Origin: Rickettsiales bacterium
GTDB taxonomy: Bacteria; Pseudomonadota; Alphaproteobacteria; Rs-D84; CACZYB01
Direction of reading: 5' to 3'
NCBI GenBank assembly: GCA_031288035.1
Contig: JAITSG010000019.1
Coordinates: 1-30,759 of the forward strand
DNA length: 30,759 nt
Shown piece after piece: positions 3,309 through 18,058 of the stretch. The translations under genes were made by a program, and so were the position numbers. The notes beneath the pieces were generated by a model. That model had not been told where the DNA came from. It ran no database searches and saw only the letters and a program-made list of their open reading frames with translations. Each line of letters opens with the position of its first letter. Position 1 is the stretch's first letter.

Positions 3309-3337
3309 ATTCTAACCCGCCCGTGAAATTTTTGCAA
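3309..3337 (-). promoter_or_regulatory. sigma70-like promoter of the slt-rnhB-birA operon
   Basis: Minus strand TTGCAA-17 nt-TAGAAT; back-to-back with the plus-strand promoter at 3346. Confidence 0.65.
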
Positions 3338-3345
3338 TTTTTAAC

Positions 3346-3374
3346 TTGACATCTGAGAACAAATAGCGTATATT
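3346..3374 (+). promoter_or_regulatory. sigma70-like promoter heading the phage-like cluster
   Basis: TTGACA (3346-3351)-17 nt-TATATT (3369-3374). Confidence 0.75.
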
Positions 3375-3385
3375 GCGGCTCAAGT

Positions 3386-3416
3386 CAACGGGGAAAGTGT
3401 GCCCGTTGTTTTTTTT
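3386..3416 (+). terminator. Promoter-proximal intrinsic terminator
   Basis: CAACGGG-9 nt loop-CCCGTTG followed by T8, starting about 5 nt after the predicted transcription start. Confidence 0.75.
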
Positions 3417-3455
3417 GTCGCTTTGCGGCGGATTTTTTCATTTTTGGAAACGGAC

Positions 3456-3863
3456 ATGGCGACTGGTCTTTATACGGCGCGCAACGCGTCGGCATTGGCC
3501 CGCGCTTTGTTCGCGACGCAAAAGGACGCGCCGCCTATCCTCCGCCTCGCCATCGCGCATGCGGCCGTCAACCGGTATCTGTACGAGCGAGACCTCGATC
3601 CCGGCGCGGACTTCGTGTCCGTCGTCGCGGACGAAGAGCTGTTCGAATGCTGGGGCGACCCGCGGTCTTTCTCGGAATGCACGGGCGACGCCCGGTACGG
3701 CGAGTGCTTCGCCGCGGCCAAGGGCGTCCTGAGCGGCGGCCTCGGCGATCCGACGAATTGCTCGCGCCGGTTCCATGCGCGGTTCCGCAGCCCTGTATGG
3801 GCCATAGGGCTCGTCCCCGCCGCGCGCATAGGCGGATATCTTTTCTATAACAACTGCGACTAG
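3456..3863 (+). CDS. Cell-wall hydrolase SleB/CwlJ (Hydrolase_2)-like protein, catalytic Glu apparently absent
   Basis: Pattern LARAL...AIAHAAVNR...FECW...DPT...FH...P.WA...IG..LFY matches the family. ALFATQKD stands where GEARGE is normally found. Confidence 0.75.
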   Translation: MATGLYTARNASALARALFATQKDAPPILRLAIAHAAVNRYLYERDLDPGADFVSVVADEELFECWGDPRSFSECTGDARYGECFAAAKGVLSGGLGDPTNCSRRFHARFRSPVWAIGLVPAARIGGYLFYNNCD

Positions 3864-3878
3864 CTGAAAGGAAGCACG

Positions 3879-4448
3879 ATGAAGAAAGAAAACAAGGACG
3901 GGGATTCCGTTTTGGATCTGGCTCTCGCCACGGACGGGGATTCGGCCGGGAGTTGCGGCCCGGACATAAAGGACGGCATGGCGGAGGCGTGCGAGGCCAT
4001 TGCCGGGCGGCTCAGGGCCTCCGGCATGACGCCCGGCCAGATCAAGCTGGTGTGCGATCTGGCCGCCGAGGTCCTGGAGCCGGCGATAGAAAGCGTGGCC
4101 GAGCATTACCGCGCCTTGCGCGAGCTGGAAAAGCTCGAGGAGTATTTCGGCGGCGAGGAGCGCTTCGACGAGATAAGCCGCCAGATAATCTCGTGGGGAA
4201 GGAAGAGCCTTCCGTCGGACGTCTTTGAGACTCTCGGCACCACGTGCCAGGGCGTGATAGCGCTGTACGGCATGATGCAGAGCTCCGAGCCTGTGGTCGC
4301 GAACGTCGCCGGCGCGAAGCCCGGCGCGATGACCGAGGCAAAGCTCCGCGACATGATGCGCGATCCGCGTTATTGGCGCGACAACGACGCCGAGTTCGTT
4401 AAATCCGTCGGCGATGGTTTCAGGAAATTGTACGACCGCCGGGCGTGA
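3879..4448 (+). CDS. Capsid assembly scaffolding protein (T7 gp9-like)
   Basis: Acidic helical protein ending in LRDMMRDPRYWRD...GFRKLY, as in podovirus scaffold C-termini; upstream of the capsid gene; GAAAGGA RBS. Confidence 0.7.
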   Translation: MKKENKDGDSVLDLALATDGDSAGSCGPDIKDGMAEACEAIAGRLRASGMTPGQIKLVCDLAAEVLEPAIESVAEHYRALRELEKLEEYFGGEERFDEISRQIISWGRKSLPSDVFETLGTTCQGVIALYGMMQSSEPVVANVAGAKPGAMTEAKLRDMMRDPRYWRDNDAEFVKSVGDGFRKLYDRRA

Positions 4449-4463
4449 TTTTTAAATTGCCTC

Positions 4464-4492
4464 TTGCGTATATGGGAAACATATGTTAAAAT
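4464..4492 (+). promoter_or_regulatory. sigma70-like promoter of the histone-like gene
   Basis: TTGCGT-17 nt-TAAAAT; the spacer contains a short inverted repeat ATATG-5 nt-CATAT. Confidence 0.65.
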
Positions 4493-4525
4493 GAAAGCGT
4501 CTTTTGTTTAACATAGGAGAGAGAA

Positions 4526-4798
4526 ATGTTCAAAAGCATAATAAAGAAGACGACCGCGAAGCCGGCTGCGAAGAAGCCCGCCGTGAAGAAGGCCGTCAAG
4601 AAGCCCGCGGTGGCTGCGAAAAAGCCGGTGAAGAAGGTGGCGGCCAAGAAGCCCGTCGCCAAGAAGTCGGTGACCGTGAAAAAGGCTCCCGCGAAGAAGA
4701 AGCCCGTCGCGAAGAAGGCTTCGGTGAAGGTTTCCGTCGCGAAGAAGCCCGTTGCCAAGAAGGCGCCGGCTAAAAAAAAAGTAGCGAAAAAGAAATAA
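4526..4798 (+). CDS. Histone H1-like Lys/Ala/Pro-rich DNA-binding protein
   Basis: 36 of 90 residues are Lys, none acidic, repeated KKPAAKK/KKPVAKK; strong AGGAGA RBS. Confidence 0.85.
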   Translation: MFKSIIKKTTAKPAAKKPAVKKAVKKPAVAAKKPVKKVAAKKPVAKKSVTVKKAPAKKKPVAKKASVKVSVAKKPVAKKAPAKKKVAKKK

Positions 4799-4845
4799 GT
4801 TCTGTTCGTTTGCTAAGGGGGAATCCCGCCGCGGCCAAGGACATT

Positions 4846-5370
4846 GTGTTCAAGAGCCGGCTGGCGGGATTTTTCTACGCCAGGGCCAAGGGCATCCTGC
4901 ACGTGTGGATGACCATAGTCGTGGTGGGATCGTTTTTGAACATATTCTCCAAGAAGATAATCGCCTATCGCGAGCTCGCGTTCACCATGTCGCCGATAGA
5001 GGTGATGTCCATAGAGCTGATGAACAGCATAGCCGTCATGATGCTCGAGTTGTTCCTGCCCGTCCTGTTGGTTGTTTCGGCGGTGAAGGTGCTTATAGCG
5101 CGCAGGTACGGCGTGTATCTTCCGCAGAAGCTGCGCGACGGGACTAAGTACAGGCTGCGCGTTTCGCTCCTTCTTGGCGGCCTTCTCGGGCTGTGGTTCT
5201 TCGCGTACACGAACACGTTCGCCGGATCGGCCGGCCTCGGGATATTGCTGCGCTCGTCCGCCGAGGTGGCCGTGATGCTGTTCGCGTGCTCGTTCCTGAC
5301 GTTCGCGATGCTGGCCGGCCTGATGCACGGCTTTTCGCCCATACTCTCTCTCAAGGCGCGAAGGAAATAG
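4846..5370 (+). CDS. Multi-pass membrane protein of unknown function
   Basis: Four to five hydrophobic segments. Probable GTG start at 4846 after AAGGA (ORF track starts at 4810). Confidence 0.65.
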   Translation: MFKSRLAGFFYARAKGILHVWMTIVVVGSFLNIFSKKIIAYRELAFTMSPIEVMSIELMNSIAVMMLELFLPVLLVVSAVKVLIARRYGVYLPQKLRDGTKYRLRVSLLLGGLLGLWFFAYTNTFAGSAGLGILLRSSAEVAVMLFACSFLTFAMLAGLMHGFSPILSLKARRK

Positions 5371-5397
5371 TTTCGGCGTTTCGTCGGAAACACACCG

Positions 5398-5425
5398 TCC
5401 CCCGGTTCGTCCGGGGGATTTTTTT
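5398..5425 (+). terminator. Intrinsic terminator immediately upstream of the capsid gene
   Basis: TCCCCCGG-TTCGT-CCGGGGGA then T7; ends 17 nt before the capsid ATG. Confidence 0.75.
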
Positions 5426-5442
5426 AACTGAAAGGAAAAAAT

Positions 5443-6267
5443 ATGAGCATAGAAGATTCGTTTATCAAGCAGTTCGAGGCCGAAGTGCACCTTGCTTTCC
5501 AGCAGACGGGGACCAAGCTCAGGTCGACCGTCCGCACGAAGACGGGTGTGAAGGGCTCCAGCACCACGTTCCAGAAGATCGGGACCGGCGCCGCGGCCAC
5601 GAAGACCAGGAACGGCGCGGTCCCGGTGATGAGCCTGGAGCACGCTCCGGTCGAATGCGTCCTTACCGACTATTACGCCGGCGACTATATAGACGAGCTT
5701 GACGAGATCAAGGTGAATATAGACGAGCGCCGCGTGGTGGCCTCGGCCGGCGCGTACGCCCTCGGGCGAAAGTCGGACGAGCTTATCGTGGCCAAGCTCG
5801 CCTCCGCGACGCAGTCCGTTCCTGTCGGGACTTCCGGCATGACGAAGGCGAAGGTCCTCGCCGCGCTCGAGATCATAAACGGCGCGGACGTCCCCGACGA
5901 CGGCCAGCGCTTCGGCATAGTCGGCGTCCACCAGTGGAACGAGCTCTTGAACATGCCGGAATTTTCGAGCGCCGAATACGTGGGCGATTCGTATCCTCTG
6001 CTCAAGGGCACGGAATCGAGGAAGTGGATGGGCGTCAACTGGATAATGTACAACGGCCTTCCGTTCGCCTCCGGCAACCGCACGTGCTTCGTCTATCACA
6101 AGAACGCCGTGGGCCACGCGAGCGGCTCCGAGGTCAAGACCGACATATCGTGGGTCGGCGAGAAGGCCGCGCATTTCGTGTCCAGCTCCATGAGCCAGGG
6201 CGCGGCGCTTATCGACGTCTCCGGCGTGGTGAAGATAGTGTGCGACGACGACGCCGCGATAGCTTAA
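5443..6267 (+). CDS. Major capsid protein (podovirus-type)
   Basis: N-terminus FIKQFEAEVHLAFQQ.G.KLR.TV, then D..D.LD..K...D.R...A.ALGRK.D..I, typical of HK97-fold T7-like capsids; 274 aa; context of scaffold and tail genes. Confidence 0.88.
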   Translation: MSIEDSFIKQFEAEVHLAFQQTGTKLRSTVRTKTGVKGSSTTFQKIGTGAAATKTRNGAVPVMSLEHAPVECVLTDYYAGDYIDELDEIKVNIDERRVVASAGAYALGRKSDELIVAKLASATQSVPVGTSGMTKAKVLAALEIINGADVPDDGQRFGIVGVHQWNELLNMPEFSSAEYVGDSYPLLKGTESRKWMGVNWIMYNGLPFASGNRTCFVYHKNAVGHASGSEVKTDISWVGEKAAHFVSSSMSQGAALIDVSGVVKIVCDDDAAIA

Positions 6268-6275
6268 GCCGGCAA

Positions 6276-6333
6276 GCCCGCCCGCCCGCCGTTTCCACGG
6301 CCGTTTTCCGGCCCCGGGCGGCGGGCGTTTTTT
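6276..6333 (+). terminator. Intrinsic terminator after the capsid gene
   Basis: GCCCGCCCGCCCG pairs with CGGGCGGCGGGC (one bulge), followed by T6; position analogous to T7 Tphi. Confidence 0.6.
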
Positions 6334-6349
6334 ATCGAAAGGATTTCAC

Positions 6350-6586
6350 ATGGACTCGAAGAACCTGTCCGTTCTCTCGTATTCGAACGGATTCACGCTT
6401 TGGCACTACAAGACCGACGACGACAGGGCGGCCGTCATGGGGCCCGGGTATTTTTCCGTCATGGCGGGCGTTTTCAATCCCGGCGACGCGATGTTCGTCA
6501 CGTATTGCGGCGGCAGGCGCAGGTTTTCCGAGCTTGCCGTCATGGACGGCTCCGGCGGCGAGGTGACCCTCGTCGGTATGAGATAG
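6350..6586 (+). CDS. Small phage protein, possible capsid decoration protein
   Basis: 78 aa, NLSVLSYSNGFTLWHYKT...GYF...GD, which I recall following capsid genes in related alphaproteobacterial loci (unverified); GAAAGGA RBS. Confidence 0.55.
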   Translation: MDSKNLSVLSYSNGFTLWHYKTDDDRAAVMGPGYFSVMAGVFNPGDAMFVTYCGGRRRFSELAVMDGSGGEVTLVGMR

Positions 6587-6594
6587 GGGGACTT

Positions 6595-7122
6595 ATGAAC
6601 AGTATAGAATTGTGCTCGCAGGCGCTCGTGAAGATAGGGGCGGCCCCGATAGTGTCGTTCGACGACGGCTCTCTGGAGGCTTCGGTCGCGTCGTACGCGT
6701 ATCCGCTTGCGAAAAGAAAGCTGCTTTCCAGCTTCGCGTGGGGCTTCGCCACGAAATCGGCGAGGCTGAGCAGCCTTTCCGGCGGGGCGTTCGCCGTTCC
6801 GAACGATTTCCTGCGCGCGATATGCGTGCGCCCGAAATGTGCGTACGCGATAACGGGCCACAAGCTCGCGGCCGACGCTGATGCGATAGAGCTCGACTAC
6901 GTCGCCGACGTTGGCGAGGAGCTTTTCCCGCCGCTTTTCGAAAGCGCGCTGATGTATTCGCTTGCGGCGGAGTTTGCGATGTCGCTTTTGGATGACAGCG
7001 CCAGGTACAACCTTATGGAGCATACCGCGCTCTTGGAATTGCGCGAGGCTAGGTTCCAGGACAGCAGCCAGAAGAGCGCGAAGTCGATAAAGGGCTTCCC
7101 TCTCGTCGATGCGAGGAAATGA
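6595..7122 (+). CDS. Tail tubular protein A / head-tail adaptor (T7 gp11-like)
   Basis: LCSQAL.KIGA.PI.S.DDGS.EA......Y......LL....W.FA...P.DFLR...FPPLF..AL...LA.E; start moved to the ATG at 6595. Confidence 0.82.
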   Translation: MNSIELCSQALVKIGAAPIVSFDDGSLEASVASYAYPLAKRKLLSSFAWGFATKSARLSSLSGGAFAVPNDFLRAICVRPKCAYAITGHKLAADADAIELDYVADVGEELFPPLFESALMYSLAAEFAMSLLDDSARYNLMEHTALLELREARFQDSSQKSAKSIKGFPLVDARK

Positions 7123-7123
7123 C

Positions 7124-9007
7124 ATGTACAAGACGACGTTCACGAACACGGCGTTCTCCAGGGGCGAGATATCCCCGCACCTTCTGGCGCGCGGCGATTT
7201 CGAATCGTACAGGAGCTGCGCGATGAAGCTCAGGAACTTCCGCGTGCTTCCGGTCGGAAGCATAAGGCGCCGCCCGGGCACGGTGTTCGTAGCCGAGCTT
7301 CCGGGCGAGGCGAGGCTTATCCCGTTCGCGTATTCGCAAAGCGATTCGTTCCTGCTCGCCTTTACGTCCGGCCGGATACTGGTGTACTCTTCGTCCGGCC
7401 GGAATGTGGGGGAGCTTTCAAGCCCGTTCATGCCGGAGCATTTCGCGAGGATATGCTATGCGCAGAAAGGGGGCGAGCTGTACCTTTCGCACCCGGACGT
7501 GCCGCCAGCCGTCATATCGTACGATCCGATTGGGGGTTCGTGGAGCGTGTCCGGATGGAATTTTTCGACCATGCCGTTTTCAGAGTTCCCGGAATTTTCC
7601 GGAATCTCGGTGAAGCCTAGCGGAACCGGCGGAAGCATAAGCCTGTCGTCGGGCGCGGATTTTTTCACGGGCGATATGGTCGGCATAGCGTTTCGCATAA
7701 ACGGCGGCGAGGTTAGGGTGTCCTCCGTGTCCTCTCCGGCCGTGGCGTCTGCGGAGGTGCTCAGGGCGCTGGATTCGGCCGCCGCCTGCGATGATTTCAC
7801 CGAGCAGGCGTTTTCCGCCCGCCGCGGATGGCCCTCCAGCATAACGTTCCACCAGGACAGGCTCGTCATAGGCGGCAGCGCGGGCATACCGAACCGCCTG
7901 TGGTTTTCGAAGACCGGCGATTACCTGAACTTCGACCTTGGCGCCGGCCTCGACGACGAGGCGATAGAGTTCAACATGCTCTCCGACCGCGTGAACGACA
8001 TAGCGGCGGTTTTTGCCGGCCGTCACCTTCAGGTGTTCACGGGCGATTCCGAATGGATGGTGAGCGGCTCGCCCTTGACTCCGACTAGCGTTATGATACG
8101 CGAGCAGACCAAGATAGGCTCCATGACCTCGCGCCTGATAAAGCCGGTGCTGGTCGAGGGCTCTACTATATTCGTCGCCAGGAACGGCAGGGAAATCCGC
8201 GAGTTTTACTACGGCGAGATAGAGGGCGGTTACCGTTCGGACGACCTTGTCGCGCTCTCCAGCCATCTTATGCAAGGCCCGGTGGAGCAGGAGTACGATG
8301 CCTCCGGCCGCATGCTTTATGTAGTGCAGGGCGACGGGAGCATGGCGGTGCTTTCACTGAACAAGGGCATGGACATAAATGCATGGTCGCATTACGAGAC
8401 CGCGGGCGAGTTCAAGTCCATAGCGTGCGTCGGCGGATCGGTGTACGTGGCCGTCCGGCGCGGCGGCAGGTGGATGGTCGAATATTTCTCGGACGACGTT
8501 GGGAGCGACTCGTCGCGCGTCGAAAATTTCGGCGTCCCTTCGTCCGTAATGCCGGGCCTGTCGCACCTGGAGGGCGGGGACGTCGTGGCCGTGGCGGACG
8601 ACTATGTGTTCGCGGGCCGCGTGGAGGGCGGAGTCTTCGAAGTTTCCCGTCCCGCCCGGAACATAAGGGTCGGCCTGCCGTTCTCGCACTGCTACTGCCC
8701 GCTGCCGGCTTTCGTCGGCCGCTCGCGTCCTCCGCGGGCGTCGAGGCTTCTGGAGCTGGTGGTGCGCGTGATCGACACTCCGCTTGTCGAGATAGACGTG
8801 GGCCGCGGCCCGCGGGCGTTCACGGGCGCGCGCTTCGGCGGTCCTGGGATTTTGGACTCGCCGCTCGCGTATTTCACCGGCGACGTGCGCGCGCACGCCT
8901 CGGGCCTAGTCCGCGGGTTCGACGTGCCCATGTTCAAGATAGAGGGCTCGCTCCCTCTTCCTGTGCACATTTTAAGCATAACGCAGACTGTTGAATGCGT
9001 AAGGTAG
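7124..9007 (+). CDS. Tail tubular protein B / nozzle (T7 gp12-like)
   Basis: N-terminal FSRGEISP.L..R.D..Y.....LRNF.V.P.G...RRPG; internal WPS..TFHQDRL and WFSKTGDY.NF; about 627 aa. Confidence 0.85.
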   Translation: MYKTTFTNTAFSRGEISPHLLARGDFESYRSCAMKLRNFRVLPVGSIRRRPGTVFVAELPGEARLIPFAYSQSDSFLLAFTSGRILVYSSSGRNVGELSSPFMPEHFARICYAQKGGELYLSHPDVPPAVISYDPIGGSWSVSGWNFSTMPFSEFPEFSGISVKPSGTGGSISLSSGADFFTGDMVGIAFRINGGEVRVSSVSSPAVASAEVLRALDSAAACDDFTEQAFSARRGWPSSITFHQDRLVIGGSAGIPNRLWFSKTGDYLNFDLGAGLDDEAIEFNMLSDRVNDIAAVFAGRHLQVFTGDSEWMVSGSPLTPTSVMIREQTKIGSMTSRLIKPVLVEGSTIFVARNGREIREFYYGEIEGGYRSDDLVALSSHLMQGPVEQEYDASGRMLYVVQGDGSMAVLSLNKGMDINAWSHYETAGEFKSIACVGGSVYVAVRRGGRWMVEYFSDDVGSDSSRVENFGVPSSVMPGLSHLEGGDVVAVADDYVFAGRVEGGVFEVSRPARNIRVGLPFSHCYCPLPAFVGRSRPPRASRLLELVVRVIDTPLVEIDVGRGPRAFTGARFGGPGILDSPLAYFTGDVRAHASGLVRGFDVPMFKIEGSLPLPVHILSITQTVECVR

Positions 9008-9023
9008 TTAAAAGGAGAATGAT

Positions 9024-9455
9024 ATGTCAACATCGAACGCCCTGCTGACGGGCTTTGATTTAGCGAAGAACACGGTCGACAAGAAGGCCGAGAAGGCCAA
9101 GTCCGACGCGGAGGCGAAGGCCAGGCTCGACAGCGAGGCCGCAAAGGACGCGATAGATTCGGAAAAGATAAGGGCCAAGGTCTCCCTGTTCGCGCGCGAC
9201 CGCACGAATCTTCTGAACGCGAAGGTCGCGGCCAACCGCGCCCGCATGGCGGCCAGCGGGCTTGACGGCACGTCGAACAGCATCCGGGCGTTCTTCGCCG
9301 CGCTTCAGAGTGCCGCGAACGAGGAGATAAGCGGCAACGCGTACTTCGCCGACCTGGATTTGGCGAAATACGACCTGAACGACCCGTCCGCCGTTTCGAG
9401 CATACTCGCCGCAGCGCAGGGGAAAAGCAAAAAGAAAAAAGTAGTGGGGTTCTGA
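9024..9455 (+). CDS. Putative internal virion (ejection) protein, gp14-like
   Basis: Ala-rich helical protein with a RARMAASGL motif, lying after tail tube B; AAAGGAG RBS. Confidence 0.5.
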   Translation: MSTSNALLTGFDLAKNTVDKKAEKAKSDAEAKARLDSEAAKDAIDSEKIRAKVSLFARDRTNLLNAKVAANRARMAASGLDGTSNSIRAFFAALQSAANEEISGNAYFADLDLAKYDLNDPSAVSSILAAAQGKSKKKKVVGF

Positions 9456-9456
9456 A

Positions 9457-9897
9457 ATGCCGTATGAAAAAGAAAACACCTCGGTATCGTATAAAGCCGA
9501 CGGCTCGTCCGTGGAGTTCGAGTTCCCGTTTAGGATCTTCCGGCCGCAGGACGTGAAGGTCGAGATAGACGACGATCCGGTCGAGGAAGGGTTTTCCGTC
9601 GCAGGGGACAAGGTGGTGTTCGCCGCGCCTCCGCCGGCCGGATCGGACATAAGCATAAGGCGGTTCCTCGATTTCACGCGCATAGGCGCGTTCACGGCCG
9701 GCGGCCCGTTCAGGGCCGAGGATGTAAATACCGAGTTCGAATACACCCGCGCGTGCATCCGCCAGATATTCGACACGGATCTGGCCGACGCGGTTGCGTT
9801 CGTTGAGGATTGCCTGAGCGCCATAGAGGAAATATACGGCGAGCTGACCGACATATGGGGCGGCCAGCTCGACTGCGGAGGCTTGGCCGATGCCTAG
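9457..9897 (+). CDS. Stand-alone T7 gp17-type tail-fibre N-terminal adaptor domain
   Basis: Y.ADG....F.FPF..F...DV.V...V.F..PP..G..I.I.R.......F..G....A..LN.EF pattern; only 146 aa. Confidence 0.78.
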   Translation: MPYEKENTSVSYKADGSSVEFEFPFRIFRPQDVKVEIDDDPVEEGFSVAGDKVVFAAPPPAGSDISIRRFLDFTRIGAFTAGGPFRAEDVNTEFEYTRACIRQIFDTDLADAVAFVEDCLSAIEEIYGELTDIWGGQLDCGGLADA

Positions 9898-10501
9898 CGC
9901 AGCGGCCGATTCGTCGTTCGTTTCGTTCCTCGGGGGCTGGAACTCGCTTATGGGCTTGTCCACGCCCGCCCACCATGTCCGCATCGCGAGATGGCTCGAG
10001 CGCGTGTTCAAAAGCAGGAAGAGGCGCGGGCTCCTGCTGGCCTTCCGGGCGAGCGGCAAGTCGACTATAGTCGGCCTGTTCATAGGATGGCTGCTGCGCG
10101 AGGATCCGAATCTGCGCATTCTGGTCGTCGCGGCGGATTCCGTTCTGGCCAAGAAGATGGTGCGTAGCGCGAGGAGGATAATCGAGATGCACCCCGGCCT
10201 GGCCGTCATCCGCCCGGTCAGGAGGGTCGAATGGGCGGGCGGATGCTTTACGGTGGAGCGCGGCATGCCTTTGCGCGATCCAAGCGTGCTTGCCATGGGC
10301 ATAGGCGCGAACATTACGGGGAGCAGGGCGGACGTGATAGTGTGCGACGACGTGGAGGTTCCGAAGAACACTTCTACCGCGGCCAGGCGCGCGGAGTTGC
10401 GCGAAAAGCTCCTGGAGCTCGACTTCGTCCTCACTCCGGACGGCATGGAGGTTTTCATAGGGACCCCGCATGTCAAGGACACTATTTACCGTGTGCGATA
10501 G
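9890..10501 (+). CDS. Terminase large subunit, N-terminal ATPase half
   Basis: Walker A AFRASGKST, Walker B VIVCDDVE, motif C FIGTPH, then stop; GGAGG RBS 8 nt upstream. Confidence 0.88.
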   Translation: MPSAAADSSFVSFLGGWNSLMGLSTPAHHVRIARWLERVFKSRKRRGLLLAFRASGKSTIVGLFIGWLLREDPNLRILVVAADSVLAKKMVRSARRIIEMHPGLAVIRPVRRVEWAGGCFTVERGMPLRDPSVLAMGIGANITGSRADVIVCDDVEVPKNTSTAARRAELREKLLELDFVLTPDGMEVFIGTPHVKDTIYRVR

Positions 10502-10870
10502 CCGGCTTGCGTTCGCGGTCGTTCGTCCTGTTCGCGGCTTTCGCCAAGTGCGTGCGGCGCTGAACTGCGCGCGGCAACATTTGCGAAGCATCATGCCCTT
10601 GTGCGGGGAGGGCATCCGGCCGGAAGCGCATCCGCAGGAGCTGTTTTTCGATTCTCGCGCGGACAACGGCCCTTGCCGCATGGCCGGCGTTCCTCGTTTG
10701 CGCGGACAACGGCCTTCGTTTTGCGAACCTATGTCCCTCATTTCGCTCGGACGCCGCCCGTCATTCGCGCAAGATGGCAGATTATATTCCCAGCCATAGG
10801 CGGCAAGAAAGGCCAAAACAGGCCAGAATCCGCCGATTTTTAGACAACAAAGAAATATTGTATAATTTTA

Positions 10871-10900
10871 TTGACAAACGAATTATTTTTCGTATAGAAT
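10871..10900 (+). promoter_or_regulatory. sigma70-like promoter, sRNA candidate 1
   Basis: TTGACA (10871) with TATAGA at 16 nt or TAGAAT at 18 nt spacing, in an AT-rich context. Confidence 0.65.
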
Positions 10901-10906
10901 GCAGCC

Positions 10907-11013
10907 ATTCCGCGAAAGCGGTACGAGTTTGCCGGAACGACCCCTCATTTCGGCAATAACCCCCGGGTCATTCCCTCCTTATTTCTCTCTCTCCTCTTGA
11001 TCCGGGGGATTTT
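10907..11013 (+). ncRNA. Small RNA candidate 1 (three hairpins, CU-rich loops)
   Basis: CCGC-GAAA-GCGG; 9-bp stem with loop CGACCCCTCA; 11-bp stem CCCCCGGGTCA/TGATCCGGGGG with a 27-nt pyrimidine loop, then ATTTT; no credible ORF. Confidence 0.55.
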
Positions 11014-11067
11014 CAAAGGGCCGCGGCCTTGCGCCGAAAGCCGCGCGGACATGCGTCAAGTTTTTCC

Positions 11068-11096
11068 TTGCATACCTGGCTGTTGCCTGCTAGAGT
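11068..11096 (+). promoter_or_regulatory. sigma70-like promoter with extended -10
   Basis: TTGCAT-17 nt-TAGAGT, with TG at 11088-11089. Confidence 0.5.
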
Positions 11097-11108
11097 TGGA
11101 TTCGTACG

Positions 11109-11136
11109 GACCGGATTGCCGGTCGGGTATTTTTTT
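11109..11136 (+). terminator. Intrinsic terminator
   Basis: GACCGG-ATTG-CCGGTC, then GGGTA and T7. Confidence 0.6.
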
Positions 11137-11337
11137 ATGGGAAAGTTGGCGTTGCGAATCGCATGCTGACGAATCGCGTTTTTTGATGCGTCCGGCCCGT
11201 AAAAAAGAATCAATTTTTAGGCAGTTAGGGTGTGGAATATAAATATTGAATTAATTTTTTAGATTTTGTATTCGTTTGATTTTACTGTGATTTCGGTTGG
11301 AATCATATACGAAACTTCGGTTTTGTGTCGAAACCGC

Positions 11338-11366
11338 TTGACTTTTCAAAACCTATCGCCTATGAA
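11338..11366 (+). promoter_or_regulatory. sigma70-like promoter, sRNA candidate 2
   Basis: TTGACT-17 nt-TATGAA; loss of the -7 T is common in alphaproteobacterial promoters. Confidence 0.55.
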
Positions 11367-11372
11367 TCACTA

Positions 11373-11480
11373 TGCGAGGCGATGGAATTGTTCTCTCAAT
11401 AACAAAACCTCCGGATTATTCCCTGTTGTATTCCTTTTCTCTCCTTTCCTCCTTCTCTCCTTACAACAGGGAGTTTTTTT
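11373..11480 (+). ncRNA. Small RNA candidate 2 (terminator stem with CU-rich loop)
   Basis: 13-bp stem ATTCCCTGTTGTA/TACAACAGGGAGT enclosing a 31-nt pure pyrimidine loop, followed by a T-tract. Confidence 0.55.
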
Positions 11481-11482
11481 AT

Positions 11483-11511
11483 TTGTACGGCCTTTGATTT
11501 TGTGGTATAAT
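11483..11511 (+). promoter_or_regulatory. sigma70 promoter, apparently leaderless, of the secreted protein gene
   Basis: TTGTAC-17 nt-TATAAT with extended TG; ATG follows 7 nt later; no SD sequence. Confidence 0.7.
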
Positions 11512-11518
11512 TGGGTCG

Positions 11519-13474
11519 ATGAGGAAAGGAATCTGTCATATACTGGCGTTTTTGCTGGCCCTGTCGGCCTCCGCTGGCGCCGCGACCCAGAAAAAGGCCG
11601 CCAGATCCGCGGGCAAGACCGGCGGGCACAAGGCCAAGAGGGTCAAGAAGAAGGAAACGACCACACAGCGGCTCGTTGGCGTTCCGAACGCTCCGTCAGA
11701 GCCCGGCGCCACTGCGACCAGCCCGCCAGTGTTTCAGAAGTATTTCGAATATCCGAACATAACGTTCTATAACGGCCAGAGCTATCCGCTTCAAAGCTTC
11801 ATGACTCCTTCGGTGGTTCAGGCATATCAGGCCTACGGCTCCGATTCGCGGGGGGAAAGGCTGTGCTTTTCGTGCCTGACGCTCCAGGGGACCAGCTCCG
11901 GCGGCCTTCCGCCCGAAACCGTGTCCGCGACCGCGGCGCAGAAGGCCTGTACTCCGCTAAAGGCTGGATATTCGTATGTTTTCGTCGTTGACCAGAACGC
12001 GACCGCCACGTGCGGCATGTCCGGGACCTTGACGATGGAGGACGCGAACAAATCCGTCCGCGGCCAGATGCCTATAACGTTTTCGATAAACACGGCCGCC
12101 CTGTCCGATCCGAACAACTTCGACGATCCGGACAAGACGTTCGACCAGCTGTTCGCCAATTTCGACAAGGTCAGGAACGGGATAAAGAGCGCGTATGAGA
12201 ATGTGAACGAGAAGTGCCGCGCGGCCAAGAAAGGGGTTAGCTCCCTGAAGGCCGCGGTTTCCGGCGCCACGACCCTTTCCGGCATAGGCATAGCGACTAG
12301 CGCGCTCGGCACCGGGGCGAGCGCCTGGAGCACGATTAACACTAAGAAGATAAAGGGCGGCCAGGAGGATCTGGCCAACGCCGACAAGGCGATACGCGAC
12401 GCGCTTGCGGTGTTGGACGCGGAGGCTGTTAAGATAGCCGAGGGTGACGGGAGGACAGCTTGGAAAGAATCTGAGAAATACGCCGCTATCCTTGAAGGCG
12501 GCCGGTGGGAGCCGGACGATTCGTCCGCGACCGAGGGGAAGATAAAGCTGTTTAAGAGCAAGAGTGTCGATGAAAAAGCCCAGGCCGACCATACCATTAA
12601 CTTCACCCAGGCGGTGAAGGAGTTGGAGAAGAATAGGAATGCCGAGCCATTGGCAGAGAATGATATTATTCGGCAATCCTCTCTAGTTACAACAGCCGCC
12701 AACAACGGAACAAAGCTTTGTGATGTCGATATTACTGGCAAGACCATCGCAGATAAGGATATCCAAGAGGTTAGATCTGATCTGAACAGTTCCGTTGACG
12801 ATTTTAGAAACAACGGAACCGGAGCTGCGGAAATGGCGGCTGGTGAAAAATACGACCTGCTTATAAAGGAGTGCGATACCGCAAAAGATAACGCGAGTAA
12901 AGCGGTTGGCAAGACTGATTCGCAATCTATAAGGAGTAGAGAAAATTTTGAAAGAAATTATGGGGAGGGATTTGACTGCAAGCCTGATCCGGATCAATCC
13001 CCTGGTGCAAATGTTCCTGTCAAAAAAGCAGCTTTGCAGAAAGCTCGTTATAATTTGACCGCAGCTGGCGTTGCTCTTACTCCTGAACAAAAAAGCAAAA
13101 TAAGATGCGTGGAAGACGCTATTGCCAAGCTCAACGAAGTGCAAAACGGCACCGGCTTCAACGAGAAGCTTGCCAAGCTTAGGACTGCCGAGGCCGCTGC
13201 GAAGTCGTTCGAGGATACGAAGGAGGACGCCCAGAGCGCGCGCAACCTGTCGTTCGGGCTCGACATGGGCGCGTCGGCCGCCGGTCTTGCCACGACCGGC
13301 TTGTCCGCCTTCGGTCTGGGCAAGGGCGCGGAAGCGGCAGGGGACGTGGACAAGGCGGCCGAGCAGGTCAAGGCCTGCGCCGACGCGTCGGCCGGATTGA
13401 CCAAGGCCCTGTCCGACTACGACGAATACGTCCGCTCGCTCGAGGAGGAGGAAGAGGAGGATTTCATATGGTAA
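11519..13474 (+). CDS. Large secreted helical protein with two Gly/Ala-rich hydrophobic helices
   Basis: Signal peptide (ILAFLLALSASAGA); hydrophobic segments LSGIGIATSALGTGASAW and LSFGLDMGASAAGLATTGLSAFGLG; acidic tail. Confidence 0.8.
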   Translation: MRKGICHILAFLLALSASAGAATQKKAARSAGKTGGHKAKRVKKKETTTQRLVGVPNAPSEPGATATSPPVFQKYFEYPNITFYNGQSYPLQSFMTPSVVQAYQAYGSDSRGERLCFSCLTLQGTSSGGLPPETVSATAAQKACTPLKAGYSYVFVVDQNATATCGMSGTLTMEDANKSVRGQMPITFSINTAALSDPNNFDDPDKTFDQLFANFDKVRNGIKSAYENVNEKCRAAKKGVSSLKAAVSGATTLSGIGIATSALGTGASAWSTINTKKIKGGQEDLANADKAIRDALAVLDAEAVKIAEGDGRTAWKESEKYAAILEGGRWEPDDSSATEGKIKLFKSKSVDEKAQADHTINFTQAVKELEKNRNAEPLAENDIIRQSSLVTTAANNGTKLCDVDITGKTIADKDIQEVRSDLNSSVDDFRNNGTGAAEMAAGEKYDLLIKECDTAKDNASKAVGKTDSQSIRSRENFERNYGEGFDCKPDPDQSPGANVPVKKAALQKARYNLTAAGVALTPEQKSKIRCVEDAIAKLNEVQNGTGFNEKLAKLRTAEAAAKSFEDTKEDAQSARNLSFGLDMGASAAGLATTGLSAFGLGKGAEAAGDVDKAAEQVKACADASAGLTKALSDYDEYVRSLEEEEEEDFIW

Positions 13475-14022
13475 GGCGCAAGGCAATCGTCGTTCCCGGC
13501 CGTCTCGCCGTTCCCGCGCGTGCGGGCGTGGCTATGGCCTGGTTTCTCGCGTTCTCGGCCCCCGCGTTTTCCGCCGACGCGCGCATCACGGGGCCGAAGA
13601 AAAAGCTCGACGCCCAGATTGAGGCCCTGAACGCTGTTTCCCAGAAATGCCGTCCGAACAGCAAGGACATCTCGGATATTTCCGGCTCGCTGACCGCGGG
13701 CAATATCACGAACGCCGTCGCGATAGCCGGCGGCGGTACGGCCATGGTGACTAGCGGTATTTCCGTCTTCAAGGAATTCCAGTACAAGGGATTGCAGAAG
13801 AAAGATGAGCTGACGGACGAGGAAAAGAAGAAGATGGAGAAGACTACCGACGCGCAGGGCAAGCTCCGCCTCGCCTCCGCCATAGGTTCTGGCGTCGCCA
13901 CGGCCGGCAACACGGTTTCCACCCTCACGCTGAACAGCGCGGCTGGCAAGCTGGATAAGGCCCTGGAGTATTACGGCGGATGCTTCGATGCGCTCGAGGC
14001 CGTGGACACGACCGGCTGGTGA
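13468..14022 (+). CDS. Secreted protein, compact paralog of the upstream gene
   Basis: Signal-peptide-like segment AMAWFLAFSAPAFSA; shared motifs KCR, two Gly-rich helices, DAQ..R and DKA.E...C.DA. Confidence 0.75.
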   Translation: MVRRKAIVVPGRLAVPARAGVAMAWFLAFSAPAFSADARITGPKKKLDAQIEALNAVSQKCRPNSKDISDISGSLTAGNITNAVAIAGGGTAMVTSGISVFKEFQYKGLQKKDELTDEEKKKMEKTTDAQGKLRLASAIGSGVATAGNTVSTLTLNSAAGKLDKALEYYGGCFDALEAVDTTGW

Positions 14023-14178
14023 TGGTCCCGTCGTTCCGGCGCAGGCCGGTTCAGTCACCCCGGCGCAGGCCGGGGCCCCCTGTTCGGTATAGTTGCATAT
14101 TCTTTGCCGCGGGATGGCTGCCTTTCGGCTTCGCTTTGTTTCGCCGGGGCAAGCCGCCGGCATGATAACGGCCTTTAC

Positions 14179-14205
14179 TCCCCGCCTCCCGCGGGGATTT
14201 TTTTT
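14179..14205 (+). terminator. Intrinsic terminator immediately upstream of the portal gene
   Basis: TCCCCGC-CTCCC-GCGGGGA then T8; the portal RBS begins 12 nt later. Confidence 0.72.
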
Positions 14206-14230
14206 ATTTCAACGACAGAAAGGAGAAGCA

Positions 14231-15625
14231 ATGGACATGTTTGCCGTATATGAGAAATACAAGCGCGCATTCGAGGAGCGGAGCCGGTTCGAGCCGGTAT
14301 GGGACGACTGCAGGAGGTATTCCCAGCCGGGCGCGGCCGATGAGTGCGTGTTCGATTCTACCGCCGCGAATGCGGTGGACAACCTGGCCTCGAGCCTGCT
14401 GGCCCAGCTTACTCCGCCGTGGTCGCGCTGGTTCGGGCTCAGTTCCGGCTCTCCGGAGGCCGCGGGCGCGGTAGCGGAGGCCGAGCGCGTGCTCCAGAGC
14501 CACATGGAGCGCAGCAATTTTTATGTCGAGGCGCACCAGTGCTATCTCGACCTGGTGACGTTCGGCACGGCGGTCATGCTGTTCGAGGAGGCTCCGGTCG
14601 GCTGGCCGAGCGCGTTCAAGTTCTCGGCCGTTCCGTTCGAGGAGGTCGCGCTCGGCTCGCAAGACGAGGTATTCCGCCGCACTGTTTTGTCCCGCGATAT
14701 TATGCGCGCGAAGTTTCCGTCGCTCCCGCTGCCCGAGGGCAAGGATTCGTTCACGGTGGTCGAATCCTCGGCTCCGCGCATGACGGCGAGCGGCCCGCAG
14801 GGGTTCGGCTATATGGTTTTCGCCGACGTGGACGGATCGCCGCTCTTGATATCCGAGGGCGTGTTCGGCATGTCGCCGTTCATAGTCTTCCGCTGGATGA
14901 AGATGCCCTCCGAGGTCTACGGCCGCAGCCCGATGATGAAGGCGCTTCCCGACGTCAAGACCGCGAACAAGGTTGTCGAGCTTGTCCTCAAGAACGCGTC
15001 CATGTCCGTCTCCGGCGTGTGGATGGCCGACGACGACGGCGTGATGAACCTGGACAACATAACGCTTTCCCCCGGAACGATAATACCAAAGGCCGTGGGA
15101 TCCAGCGGCCTCACGCCGCTCAGGACCGGCGCGGATTTCAACGTAAGCCAGCTCGTGCTTTCCGAGCTTCGGTCGAACATAGAGCGCTGCCTCCTGGCCG
15201 ACCGGCTGTCGGATTTTAGGGGGGCGCGCATGACCGCGACCGAGGTTGTGGAGCGCAGCGAGTCCGTCTCTCGGGTGCTCGGCGCGACGTACGGGCGGCT
15301 GCAGAGCGAGTTCCTGACCATGGTCATCCTGCGCGCGGTGGGCATACTGAAGCGCCGGGGCGAGATAGGCCCTCTGTTCGTCAACGGTCGCGAGGTGGAT
15401 TTGAAATACCAATCGCCTCTGGCCGGCGCCCAGGCCGTGCGCGACGCCGAGAACGTCCTCGGCTGGATAAGGGCCATGGGCGACCTCGGCGGCGGCGCGC
15501 TGGAGCGCGTGGACAGGGACGCCGTTGCGAAATACCTGTCGCGCGTATTCGGGATAAGCGGCGACTTCACGGCCGATGCCGCTTCTCCCGGCGCGGGGAG
15601 CCCGTCAACGGGCCCGGAGGACTAG
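14231..15625 (+). CDS. Head-tail connector / portal protein (T7 gp8-like)
   Basis: FDSTA..AV.NLAS.L...LTPP...WF.L; DL.TFGTA; RW...PSEVYGRSP; TATEV.ER; GRLQ.EF; start at the ATG after GAAAGGAG. Confidence 0.92.
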   Translation: MDMFAVYEKYKRAFEERSRFEPVWDDCRRYSQPGAADECVFDSTAANAVDNLASSLLAQLTPPWSRWFGLSSGSPEAAGAVAEAERVLQSHMERSNFYVEAHQCYLDLVTFGTAVMLFEEAPVGWPSAFKFSAVPFEEVALGSQDEVFRRTVLSRDIMRAKFPSLPLPEGKDSFTVVESSAPRMTASGPQGFGYMVFADVDGSPLLISEGVFGMSPFIVFRWMKMPSEVYGRSPMMKALPDVKTANKVVELVLKNASMSVSGVWMADDDGVMNLDNITLSPGTIIPKAVGSSGLTPLRTGADFNVSQLVLSELRSNIERCLLADRLSDFRGARMTATEVVERSESVSRVLGATYGRLQSEFLTMVILRAVGILKRRGEIGPLFVNGREVDLKYQSPLAGAQAVRDAENVLGWIRAMGDLGGGALERVDRDAVAKYLSRVFGISGDFTADAASPGAGSPSTGPED

Positions 15626-15627
15626 CC

Positions 15628-16458
15628 ATGGAAGACCGGGATGATCCGCCGTTTTTGGAGGGGTTCGACCTGCTGAAGATTCCGGTGGTCGAGGACGGCC
15701 GGCCCGTGTGGCCGGAAAAGTTCCCGCTTGATAAGATAGAGCGGGTGCGCAGGTCTGCCGGCCCGCGGAAGTTCATGAGCCAGATGATGCTCGCCGTTCC
15801 GGACGGGGACGGCGGCCGGCTGTCCCCGGAAAGCCTGAAATTCTATTCGGCCGAGATAGAGGCGAGCGAGCGCAACCATGTCGTTTCGCATTCCGTCGCG
15901 GGCAGGCCGCTGGCCGGATATTCGTGCTGGTGGGATCCGTCGTTCGGATCGGCCAAGGGCGACGCGAGCGTCGTTGCCTATGTCCTTGTGGGCTGCGGAG
16001 GCGAGCGGTACCTGCACGACGTCGAGTATATCGCGGTGGACGATTCCGCGCGCTCGGCCGAGATACAGTGCGCCCGCATAGCCGGGTTCCTCGCCCGCCA
16101 TTCGATACGGACTATCCGGGTCGAGGACAACGGGCTCGGCAAGTTTCTGCCGGAGATACTGCGCGCCCGCACCGGCGCGGCGGTGATAGCGGAGCGTTCC
16201 AAGGCGCCGAAGGAGAAGAGGATACTCGATTCGTTGGAGGTCGCGGCGTCGGCCGGGCTGCTCTATGTTCACGAAAGGGTGAGGTCTGCGCGCTGGATGG
16301 ACGAATTTATGGGCTGGACGCCGGGCGGAGGTTCGCCGGACGACGGACTTGACGCCGCGGCCGGCGCCATGTCCGCCCCGTTCGCCAAGTTCCCGTTCGC
16401 GCTGGTCCGGCGCCGTTTCCCGCCGCGAGGCAAGACATACAAGGTAAGATGGAGGTGA
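15628..16458 (+). CDS. Terminase large subunit, C-terminal RNase H-like nuclease half
   Basis: Begins with the inter-domain region (PFLEGF..L.IP...G..VWPE.F...GPRKF.SQM), then WWDPSFG..KGDAS, VEDNG and PDDGLDA; GGAGG RBS 7 nt upstream. Confidence 0.85.
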   Translation: MEDRDDPPFLEGFDLLKIPVVEDGRPVWPEKFPLDKIERVRRSAGPRKFMSQMMLAVPDGDGGRLSPESLKFYSAEIEASERNHVVSHSVAGRPLAGYSCWWDPSFGSAKGDASVVAYVLVGCGGERYLHDVEYIAVDDSARSAEIQCARIAGFLARHSIRTIRVEDNGLGKFLPEILRARTGAAVIAERSKAPKEKRILDSLEVAASAGLLYVHERVRSARWMDEFMGWTPGGGSPDDGLDAAAGAMSAPFAKFPFALVRRRFPPRGKTYKVRWR

Positions 16459-16485
16459 AAAAAAGCTTTTGCATGGGTTATATAC

Positions 16486-16515
16486 TTGACAAAACATTTA
16501 TTTAGGCTATATTAT
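16486..16515 (+). promoter_or_regulatory. sigma70-like promoter
   Basis: TTGACA with TATATT at 16 nt or TATTAT at 18 nt spacing, upstream of the 16540 gene. Confidence 0.6.
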
Positions 16516-16539
16516 CCATATGAACAGAAAGGATATATT

Positions 16540-17382
16540 ATGTCCAAGAAATATCTGATTGTTTTTTGTGGATTATTTCTGATAATCGCCGGCGTTGCGA
16601 TTCGGTTTCTTACCCGCAATTCTGCAAAGCCGGATGTTGCCATAGTGCCGGCCGTTGTTCCCTCCGCGCCGGAAAAGGTAGCTGGCAAGGGCACTCAGAT
16701 ATCGGCCGTGACCGCGGACAAGGTCCTGTCCATAAAGGTTTCCGCGCCGAAATACAAGACGACTCTGGGCGTGCATTATGCGTACGAGGGCGAAGCCGCC
16801 GCGCCGAAGCCCCGGCCGAAGGCCAAGGACAAGCTGGACGGGACCAGGATCTCTTGCGCCGGCCTCGATTGCGGCAGGCCGCGCTCGCCCAAGGCCGAGG
16901 CCAGGCTGGAGGCGAACGTGCGCGCCAAGGCAAAGGCCAGGGATTCCGCCCGCGCCGCCCGCTCCGCTTCACTGAAGGCCGCGAAGAAATCCGCCACGCC
17001 CACGCCCTCGGCGACCCGCGCCTCGTCCGGCGTTTCCGTTTCCGTCGCGAAGGGCAAGGCCGCCTCCGCAGCCCGGCCCGTTCTTCCGTCGCAGATTTGC
17101 GGGAATTGCAAGTGGAAGAAGGGTTCGGTCGTCATAACCAAGAATACCGTCGGAGAGCTCAAGTGCAGCGGCGTCATCCTGGGCGACCTGTACATCGCGA
17201 ACATCGACGGGCTGAAGCTTCCCGAGAAGATGGTCGTCATGGGCAGCGTGTACGTGTACAATTCCGTCCGTCTGTCCTTCGGGCCGAAGTCCTATGTGCG
17301 CGGGAACATATTTGTCCGCGGCAGGAGTTCGATAAAGACGCTGTCCAAGGGGACGCTTCTCGGCGGGCAGATATTCGTATAG
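16540..17382 (+). CDS. Membrane-anchored protein with Pro/Ala/Lys linker and C-terminal beta-solenoid-like repeats
   Basis: N-terminal TM (YLIVFCGLFLIIAGVAI); repeats ILGDLYI, VMGSVYV, VRGNIFV, LGGQIFV; GAAAGGA RBS. Confidence 0.75.
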   Translation: MSKKYLIVFCGLFLIIAGVAIRFLTRNSAKPDVAIVPAVVPSAPEKVAGKGTQISAVTADKVLSIKVSAPKYKTTLGVHYAYEGEAAAPKPRPKAKDKLDGTRISCAGLDCGRPRSPKAEARLEANVRAKAKARDSARAARSASLKAAKKSATPTPSATRASSGVSVSVAKGKAASAARPVLPSQICGNCKWKKGSVVITKNTVGELKCSGVILGDLYIANIDGLKLPEKMVVMGSVYVYNSVRLSFGPKSYVRGNIFVRGRSSIKTLSKGTLLGGQIFV

Positions 17383-17392
17383 GGAGGTTGCC

Positions 17393-18058
17393 GTGAATAT
17401 AGTGAAGCTCTCTGGCATATCCGAAGGCGTGCAGTCCGCCGTATCCTATGGCAGGGTGATTTCCGCGGGGCGCGTCGACGTGTATCCGGACAGGAGCTTT
17501 TCCAGCTTTCCGTCGGCCATGCGTCCGTACGTCATACGCGAGGTGTACTCCGCCGTGTTCGACGCCCTGCCGCAGGAATCGTACGACAGCATAGGCGGGA
17601 TGTTTCTGCCCATGAACGCCATAGACGGCCGCGTCTCCAAGTGGACGTTGATTTACAAGATAAACAGTCTGGACAGGCGGCACGACGACGTGCTCATCGC
17701 CAAGGCCGAGCCGAGGCTGCCGCCGGGATTGCTGGACTGCTTCAATTCGAGGCACGACGTGGACTACGAGTACGCCAACCGCCGCATCGCGGGTCTGCTC
17801 CACAGGCTGTATCTGGAAAGGCGGAAATATTCCAGTATCAACGATCTTGTCGGGAAGAACGCCGGGAAGCACCCGTATATCAGGGCGCTGGTCAAGCGCG
17901 TGTACAAGGATCCCGAATTCATGGAAAGCGTGGAATGGATGCTGGACGCCATCCTGCCGGAAGGGTACGGAGGCCTGGATGCGAGCGGCAAGAAGTCCGT
18001 CGCCATGTTTGTCGTGCACGGCATCCGGCGTAGTCAGGAGCGCGTCAAGGATTCTTGA
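17393..18058 (+). CDS. Hypothetical protein
   Basis: 221-aa ORF with GGAGG RBS, GTG start and coding-like GC3 bias; no family recognised. Confidence 0.7.
   Translation: MNIVKLSGISEGVQSAVSYGRVISAGRVDVYPDRSFSSFPSAMRPYVIREVYSAVFDALPQESYDSIGGMFLPMNAIDGRVSKWTLIYKINSLDRRHDDVLIAKAEPRLPPGLLDCFNSRHDVDYEYANRRIAGLLHRLYLERRKYSSINDLVGKNAGKHPYIRALVKRVYKDPEFMESVEWMLDAILPEGYGGLDASGKKSVAMFVVHGIRRSQERVKDS

Follow-up and report, generated by a model that had tools for sequence, protein, structure and literature searches.

The late operon of lambdoid phages contains the pR' promoter, the tR' terminator and the Q antiterminator, and morons lie within it. The put RNA of phage HK022, with its two defined stem-loops, provides factor-independent processive antitermination. 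Phage T7 transcribes its genes with its own single-subunit RNA polymerase and has the Tphi terminator, which separates gene 10, encoding the capsid, from gene 11, encoding tail tubular A; in free phages, a T7-type module is transcribed by the phage's own polymerase. Here we describe a cluster of T7-like morphogenesis genes in a Rickettsiales bacterium, in which intrinsic terminators are located directly before the capsid gene, the gene that follows it and the portal gene. The window, i.e., the whole stretch of DNA that was analysed, is 30,759 nucleotides (nt) long and is the entire contig JAITSG010000019.1 (C6) of the 807-kb metagenome-assembled genome GCA_031288035.1, which originates from a termite-gut metagenome, is 92% complete and has a GC content of 59%.

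Antitermination is also employed by two gene transfer agents (GTAs) of alphaproteobacteria. In the Caulobacter agent CcGTA, which is activated by GafY/GafZ, anti-termination by GafZ reads through terminators in the cluster (PMC11150451). In the Bartonella agent BaGTA, the capsid operon is driven by BrrG, a Q21-like processive antiterminator (bioRxiv 10.1101/2024.11.20.624540). In the window, the terminators occupy junctions that are conserved in related loci, the genes that follow them have no recognisable promoter, and a conserved promoter firing into terminators, called the gate below, is located ahead of the structural genes. These features may reflect processive antitermination of the lambda Q or GTA type starting from the gate, with the internal terminators also closing inserted units and insulating the structural genes from them; between accepting and doubting this reading, we are evenly poised.

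Terminators before the capsid, tail and portal genes

The first-pass annotation placed hairpins with T-tracts 17, 16 and 25 nt before the ATG codons of three genes, and both the sequence and the terminator scans confirmed these distances. The first element precedes the gene of the T7-like major capsid protein (5443-6267, forward strand; phrog_3437, E 4.5e-73): a stem of 9 bp with 7 GC pairs (5397-5419; free energy, dG, of -18.1 kcal/mol) is followed by seven T (5419-5425), and the capsid ATG lies at 5443. The second element, located after the capsid gene, has the most stable stem of the three (6283-6327, dG of -32.3 kcal/mol) with six T (6328-6333) before the ATG at 6350 of a gene encoding a protein of 78 amino acids (aa). 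In the third element, a stem of 7 bp with 6 GC pairs (14179-14197, dG of -13.0 kcal/mol) and eight T (14198-14205) stand before the portal ATG at 14231. All three fit the description of an intrinsic terminator, i.e., a GC-rich stem of at least 7-9 bp with 6-7 GC pairs and a tract of six to eight T directly after it. A fourth tight terminator-to-start junction follows the gene of a protein similar to HC2, where a stem at 4823-4870 and its T-run (4823-4875, dG of -25.5) are separated from the next start by about 32 nt. The terminators of the cluster run with the coding strand, each 15-157 nt past a stop codon.

Under a permissive definition of the terminator, 31 matches were found against 23.9 +/- 5.7 in shuffled sequences, which is no enrichment. 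When canonical terminators were defined by a dG of -10 or lower and at least six T in eight positions, the region 3300-18100 contained six of them on the forward strand and none on the reverse strand, while 100 dinucleotide shuffles of the same region gave a mean of 1.12 sites (standard deviation 0.98, maximum 3). The terminators clearly exceed chance. The whole genome contains 105 canonical intergenic terminators, seven of which lie within 35 nt of a co-directional start. Three of these seven are the pre-capsid, post-capsid and pre-portal sites (Fisher p ~0.002, an approximate value, since the genome-wide junction statistics rest on rough gene calls that miss some genes). The stem at 5397 is more stable than 82% of the canonical intergenic terminators of the genome, that at 6283 than 99%, and that at 14179 than 38%, the last being near the median.

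Several hairpins of the cluster were also reported in the first-pass annotation to end in the same sequence. The sequence GGATTTTT is indeed present at 3430, 4867, 5416 and 14195, and it occurs at 7657, 18225 and 28653 as well. Its 95 occurrences in the genome, compared with about 10 expected from base composition, make it the general terminator style of the host and no mark of the module. Terminators of the TCCC...GGGA type with a T-run are found on many other contigs and in relatives; therefore, the terminators of the cluster are of the host's own style.

The same annotation left no place for a promoter between the hairpins and the genes behind them. A scan of the 200 nt that precede the capsid, 78-aa and portal genes agrees with this, as no sigma-70-like or extended -10 promoter was detected. 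The genes from 6350 to 10799 form a promoter-less block on the forward strand, which comprises the 78-aa protein, tail tubular A and B (6595-9007), a 143-aa protein, the fibre N-domain (9457-9897), the ATPase part of the large terminase, TerL (9890-10501), and a 109-aa open reading frame (ORF); the terminator scan revealed nothing at the junctions inside this block. The portal gene (14231-15625) and the gene of the TerL nuclease (15628-16458), both on the forward strand, also have no promoter of their own.

The window and 20 syntenic loci from its order, the latter with GC contents of 30-55%, were scanned for conservation of the terminators. A terminator before the capsid gene is present in 20 of the 21 loci, including all eight loci of family f1, to which the window belongs. 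In f1, the nearest stem ends 23-67 nt before the capsid ATG in seven of the eight loci, and the terminators often form a tandem pair. Between the capsid stop codon and the start of tail tubular A, 15 of 19 loci have a canonical terminator. It is mostly located 20-43 nt before tail tubular A and stands directly after the capsid gene in the window and in G005. The pre-portal terminator was detected in all eight f1 loci and in two others. Its stem ends 33-65 nt before the assigned portal ATG in f1; some portal starts of genus g3 are probably mis-assigned, and there the distance from the stem end to the first ATG after the ribosome-binding site (RBS) is about 30-35 nt.

The stems themselves differ almost completely between genera, with complementarity fully kept and T-tracts that are always long. 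The pre-portal terminator and the stretch from it to the RBS are recognisably orthologous between the window's genome, with 59% GC, and relatives with 31-35% GC, although the cargo gene upstream is not the same in genus g3. Hairpins noted from a single sequence in the first-pass annotation are thus present in orthologous loci, where it is their position that is kept. Judging from the sequence comparison, the three elements appear to be genuine intrinsic terminators of the host RNA polymerase, kept by selection at fixed junctions.

The gate promoter and its leader

The gate promoter (TTGACA-17-TATATT, 3346-3374, forward strand) matches the consensus at 11 of 12 positions and is followed by two terminators on the same strand. 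The first consists of a stem at 3386-3408 and eight T (3386-3416), and its loop carries a conserved box, which is GGGGAAAGTGTGCCC in the window and GGGATAAGTGTGCCC in relatives. The second consists of a stem at 3414-3432 and six T (3414-3438). The whole arrangement of promoter, spacer, leader box and terminators is kept in the window and in nine related loci with GC contents of 30-59%. In the alignment, an A/T-rich upstream stretch is followed by TTGAC(A/T), a 17-nt spacer with AAATAG(Y)G, TATAGT or TATATT, and the box GGGATAAGTNTNCC about 14 nt past the -10 element across families; one to three canonical terminators then precede the first ORF. With the sequence GGGATAAGT at this distance, the box partially fits the -10 consensus and doubles as the terminator loop. 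A regulator might be loaded at the spacer sequence AAATAG(Y)G and the box GGGATAAGTNTNCC, or the two might constitute an RNA element.

The first gene behind the gate (3456-3863, forward strand) encodes a protein of 135 aa. Searches of Pfam and PHROG with this protein gave no match, and its predicted structure has the Hydrolase_2 fold of a SleB-type cell-wall hydrolase (feature score 0.97, structure TM 0.81). The product is a probable lysis enzyme. The idea that the gene encodes a Zn-finger antiterminator was rejected on account of this fold. In the related loci L022, L023, L024, L034 and L037, a holin-like protein of about 95 aa, with one membrane helix and a coiled coil, is encoded between the leader terminators and the hydrolase homologue; the window has no such gene. 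Since the first gene is a hydrolase of the SleB type and is preceded in several relatives by a small membrane protein, the gate seems to guard probable lysis genes.

Two further ideas were considered and rejected. One was the leader box as the mark of a regulon: the box occurs once in the genome, and a looser copy, GGGGATAAGT, on contig C30 leads into a short non-coding stretch. There, at about 3410-3520 on the reverse strand (L063) and adjoining era, a promoter (TTGCAA-17-TATAAT) is followed by GGGGATAAGT and a hairpin. With no clear ORF after the hairpin, this unit may be a small RNA. The other concerned an OmpR-type winged-helix protein (PF00486) of about 166 aa, encoded directly upstream of the gate on the same strand in three g3 genomes (L021, 16098-16595, reverse strand; L023, 310-813; L037). 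It has no counterpart in the window's genome, where the sole PF00486 protein is a normal response regulator encoded on contig C27.

A strong promoter closely followed by a terminator ahead of the structural genes, which is a feature of Q-type cassettes, is found in the window, and the layout of the gate is that of lambda pR'-tR' and resembles the GTAs controlled by GafZ and BrrG. The likeness to the lambdoid late operon includes the strong promoter running into a terminator at once, the long structural operon without internal promoters, and the units of promoter, gene and terminator between structural genes. In contrast to lambdoid phages, the structural genes here are T7-like, no gene of the Q family was found, and the cluster is not a prophage; the Q-binding element and the sigma-dependent pause site of the lambdoid system are suggested here only by the conserved spacer and the leader box.

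With CcGTA, the cluster shares its nature of a domesticated phage-like cluster, and in both a factor would pass a terminator near the cluster start, with tight gating as production ends in lysis. CcGTA differs in being HK97-like, and its terminator consists of 150-bp GC-rich repeats after the first gene and not of a series of canonical hairpins with T-tracts. BaGTA likewise has a promoter and an attenuating leader, and in its element resembling -10 it may also agree with the cluster, but its phage ancestry is different. As for the HK022 put RNA, the likeness is an analogy only: in both, promoter and terminators are separated by a leader element that is structured and conserved. Unlike in put, the loop of the first terminator is formed by the leader box itself. 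An Rfam search of the window and five related loci returned tRNAs only.

Inserted units in a domesticated cluster

Two units with promoters of their own were found in the cluster by the promoter scan, both on the forward strand. The first starts from a promoter at 4466-4492, with the extended -10 element TGTTAAAAT at 4484-4492. It contains the gene of a Lys-rich protein similar to HC2/H1 (4526-4798; PF07382, below the cut-off), which is closed by the terminator at 4823, and a membrane protein gene (4903-5370) located between scaffold and capsid genes and conserved in family f1 (24-33% identity in the six f1 loci where it was detected, L021-L024, L037 and L038). The second, a cargo unit of a 651-aa and a 184-aa gene (11503-14022), stands behind the extended -10 element TGGTATAAT at 11503-11511. 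This element is perfect (11503-11521 region), and 7 nt lie between its end and the ATG of the 651-aa gene, so that either the mRNA would have no leader or translation would in truth begin at a codon further downstream. The 157-nt non-coding stretch from the 184-aa gene to the pre-portal terminator contains two direct copies of the GC-rich palindromic CCGGCGCAGGCCGG (14030-14075), which are followed by a TATAGT hexamer at 14088.

A moron is an independently expressed unit inside a phage late operon, and the ant moron of phage P22 affects read-through into the tailspike gene (PMC2629481). Both units of the window have the properties of morons, i.e., their own promoters (4484 and 11503) and terminators (4823, 5397 and 14179), and a position between genes that are neighbours in relatives, scaffold and capsid lying side by side in a free phage and in G022 and G026. 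The distribution of the terminators in relatives follows the insertions. The pre-capsid terminator is present in each of the 18 loci where an inserted gene separates scaffold from capsid, and in one of the two loci where these genes are adjacent (G022 and G026). The inserted DNA varies: it is the membrane protein gene, sometimes with the HC2-like gene, in f1, the HC2-like gene in f4, and about 1 kb of other DNA in f2 and f3. The pre-portal terminator is universal in f1, where variable cargo is located between the terminase ATPase and portal genes, and is mostly absent where the portal gene directly follows the nuclease gene. Together with the moron concept, this tracking of inserted genes by terminators supports the idea, put forward in the first-pass annotation, that the structural genes are insulated from the promoters of the inserted units.

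The comparison with free phages, represented by a single phage, points in the same direction. In the Pelagibacter phage Hodr, the nearest free phage found (44% capsid identity), the scaffold and capsid genes are adjacent without a hairpin between them, nothing lies between the capsid gene and the following small gene, and before tail tubular A there is only a hairpin without a T-run. In the cluster, a terminator of the T7 Tphi type between capsid and tail tubular A is present both in the window (6283-6333) and in 15 of the 19 loci; as in T7, a hairpin with a U-run directly follows the capsid unit and precedes tail tubular genes that have no promoter of their own there. The cluster differs from T7 in the extra terminators before capsid and portal, which are absent from Hodr, and in that a PF00940 polymerase was not found. 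It looks as if the hairpin after the capsid unit were ancestral, like Tphi of T7, and the terminators with T-tracts before capsid and portal belonged to the domesticated form.

One part of the first-pass annotation has to be revised, namely that the HC2-like gene is an inserted host gene. Throughout family f4, and also in G011, the capsid region is immediately preceded by a Lys-rich HC2/H1-like gene. Because a gene of the same kind precedes the capsid leader throughout this sister family, the gene of the window appears to be an old conserved member of the cluster and not a recent arrival or a stray host gene.

The cluster lies on the forward strand between ordinary host genes, with RNase HII, biotin ligase and SLT transglycosylase genes on one flank and ribulose-phosphate epimerase, purC and ABC transporter genes on the other. 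Besides the genes already mentioned, it contains the gene of a T7-type scaffolding protein (3879-4448, forward strand; PF05396, E 4.6e-12). The unknown ORFs of the cluster, encoding 78, 143, 109, 280 and 221 aa, gave no Pfam or PHROG match that would indicate a regulator. No genes of replication, integration, immunity or RNA polymerase were found in the window. Of the 61 genomes of the order that were searched, 53 have the capsid gene (53-78% identity) and eight lack it; the gene order and the split terminase are the same in the 20 related loci compared. Given the presence of the capsid gene in 53 genomes, the constancy of the 20 loci and the lack of replication, integration and RNA polymerase genes, the cluster is best regarded as a domesticated module inherited vertically and not as a fresh prophage.

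The split of the large terminase and the reduction of the fibre to its N-domain might suggest that the cluster is a decaying prophage remnant, in which the terminators simply mark where adjacent genes end and their short distance from the following start is without function. This explanation is very improbable: no gene is disrupted, 53 of the 61 genomes, from six families, have kept the cluster together with its split terminase, and the positions of the terminators are kept while the stems change in sequence and stay complementary.

The ATPase and nuclease parts of the terminase are separate genes in every related locus where both were detected (L021-L040). Their arrangement in f1 is ATPase, cargo, portal and nuclease; in several other loci (f2, f3 and f5) the two parts adjoin, and in most f4 loci the nuclease gene lies just before the portal gene. 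The best database match to the capsid protein (58% identity) is encoded by GenBank MT838907.1, a 5-kb sequence from human faeces deposited as 'Bacteriophage sp.', which is probably a fragment of the domesticated cluster of a related bacterium rather than a phage genome.

Proposed read-through from the gate and other modes of control

According to the favoured mechanism, transcription of the whole cluster would start at the sigma-70 promoter at 3346-3374, which would fire into the leader with its one or two terminators. As long as the gate is off, host polymerase would be stopped in the leader and almost nothing would pass, and the gate would thereby prevent lysis, because the first gated gene encodes the cell-wall hydrolase. 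The unit of the HC2-like and membrane protein genes and the unit of the 651-aa and 184-aa genes would be expressed from their own extended -10 promoters, and the polymerases starting there would be halted at 4823, 5397 and 14179, where terminators lie; that at 6283 occupies the position of T7 Tphi. In the on state, a termination-resistant polymerase from the gate would pass the leader and every internal terminator and enter the blocks of the capsid, of the tail and terminase ATPase, and of the portal and terminase nuclease, which would be made only via such read-through. From the arrangement described above, we infer that read-through occurs, that it is processive and that a factor brings it about.

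The strength of the terminators bears on whether a dedicated factor is needed at all. Partial termination at leaky attenuators could set a fixed expression gradient, as at Tphi of T7, with the hairpins protecting the 3' ends of upstream mRNAs, above all that of the capsid gene, from exonucleases; the U-rich tract beside the Shine-Dalgarno sequence may in addition aid translation. The post-capsid hairpin at the position of Tphi, the hairpin before tail tubular A in Hodr, the two strong hairpins bracketing the capsid gene and the failure of the searches for an antiterminator in the genome speak for such attenuation. Yet the capsid protein, needed in the highest copy number, would then fall behind four terminators and be expressed below the scaffold. 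Moreover, the stems at 5397 and 6283 exceed most canonical terminators of the genome in stability (that at 14179 does not), and a conserved promoter running into tandem terminators before a lysis enzyme resembles an on/off gate and no rheostat. Attenuation without a factor thus seems rather improbable.

The leaders of the capsid genes raise the question of local control. In family f4 (L015-L019, L027-L030, L039-L040 and L042-L061), a conserved RNA motif of two hairpins, about 70 nt long, is located approximately 60-150 nt upstream of the capsid ATG. Hairpin 1 has the form NGG-A(C/U)AAU-stem-A-C-CCN, and hairpin 2 the form UGG-C-GCA...UGC-AUAA-CCA. In the alignment, 93.5% of the cells are paired and 7 of the 13 pairs show double changes; none of 500 shuffles equalled the observed values, and slid controls gave 26-49%. 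The motif had no match in Rfam and is a candidate for a new cis-regulatory RNA. The covariance model R1 built on it found no match in the window or in the other f1 loci.

The f1 loci have elements of a different kind. In L002-L012, a conserved non-coding motif (TTAATTATACTTT in g3) is located 3-17 nt before the first pre-capsid terminator, and its counterpart in the window is CATACTC at 5340-5346. The g3 relatives have a palindrome, TTTTGCAA...TTGCAAAA, between the two pre-capsid terminators, and in G015 one is present in the gate leader.

Such elements fit the explanation that the terminators act one by one, each as the expression platform of a regulated leader or downstream of an activator-dependent promoter that escaped recognition, and that capsid, tail and portal genes are switched separately. 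The f4 capsid gene is preceded by the two-hairpin motif and then by a further hairpin and the RBS, most f1 loci share a -10-like ATACT(T/C)T a few nt before the first pre-capsid terminator, the g3 loci have the palindrome and a GGGATAAC hairpin between the two terminators, and in three g3 genomes the gate is immediately preceded by the winged-helix (Trans_reg_C) gene. Against this stands not only the absence of matches to the f4 motif from the window and the other f1 loci but also the lack of space, as the stop codon of the membrane protein gene and the pre-capsid hairpin are separated by only 26 nt in the window, with no alternative antiterminator pairing apparent; furthermore, no promoter passes the scan, and nothing comparable precedes the pre-portal terminator. 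Separate local switching of the three blocks is therefore an unlikely explanation for the window.

Processive antitermination, which had been proposed in the first-pass annotation, gains from the conserved terminators, the lack of promoters and the conserved gate. It is weakened by several results. The Q, AlpA and Antiterm families (PF06530, PF03589 and PF05930) were not found in the 92%-complete genome, which is weak evidence, as Q is diverse in sequence. No second NusG was found in this genome either, nor a T7-type RNA polymerase (PF00940), the latter in a weak test, as control genomes also gave no match. The gate is present in G022 without the internal terminators; therefore, the internal terminators are not obligatory. 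Leaky read-through might suffice, and the long structured capsid leader of f4, together with the extra conserved elements between the two pre-capsid terminators of g3, hints at local rather than purely processive control.

A more specific proposal can be made tentatively, and we consider it rather less probable than not. A novel processive antitermination system would run a podovirus-derived GTA-like particle across the order, whose members have small genomes, by means of a new protein or of a leader RNA using the GGGAUAAGU box, and sister lineages would have added a structured RNA leader of the capsid gene with two hairpins and A(C/U)AA internal loops. This kind of arrangement has precedents in the moron-bearing late operons of lambdoid phages, in Tphi of T7 and in the antitermination of GTAs. 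On our reading, the novelty would be that the host polymerase transcribes a T7-type module under terminator control; the conserved terminators inside the cluster are new as well.

A search for the proposed switch factor could start from the gate promoter, the leader box and the three defined terminators. If the mechanism is true, the host polymerase has taken over a T7-type structural module, which is gated by terminators in the style of lambda. The internal terminators would then let genes of benefit to the host sit in the cluster without leakage into the capsid and lysis genes, and antitermination as a general control of domesticated phage particles would extend past the two studied GTAs of alphaproteobacteria.

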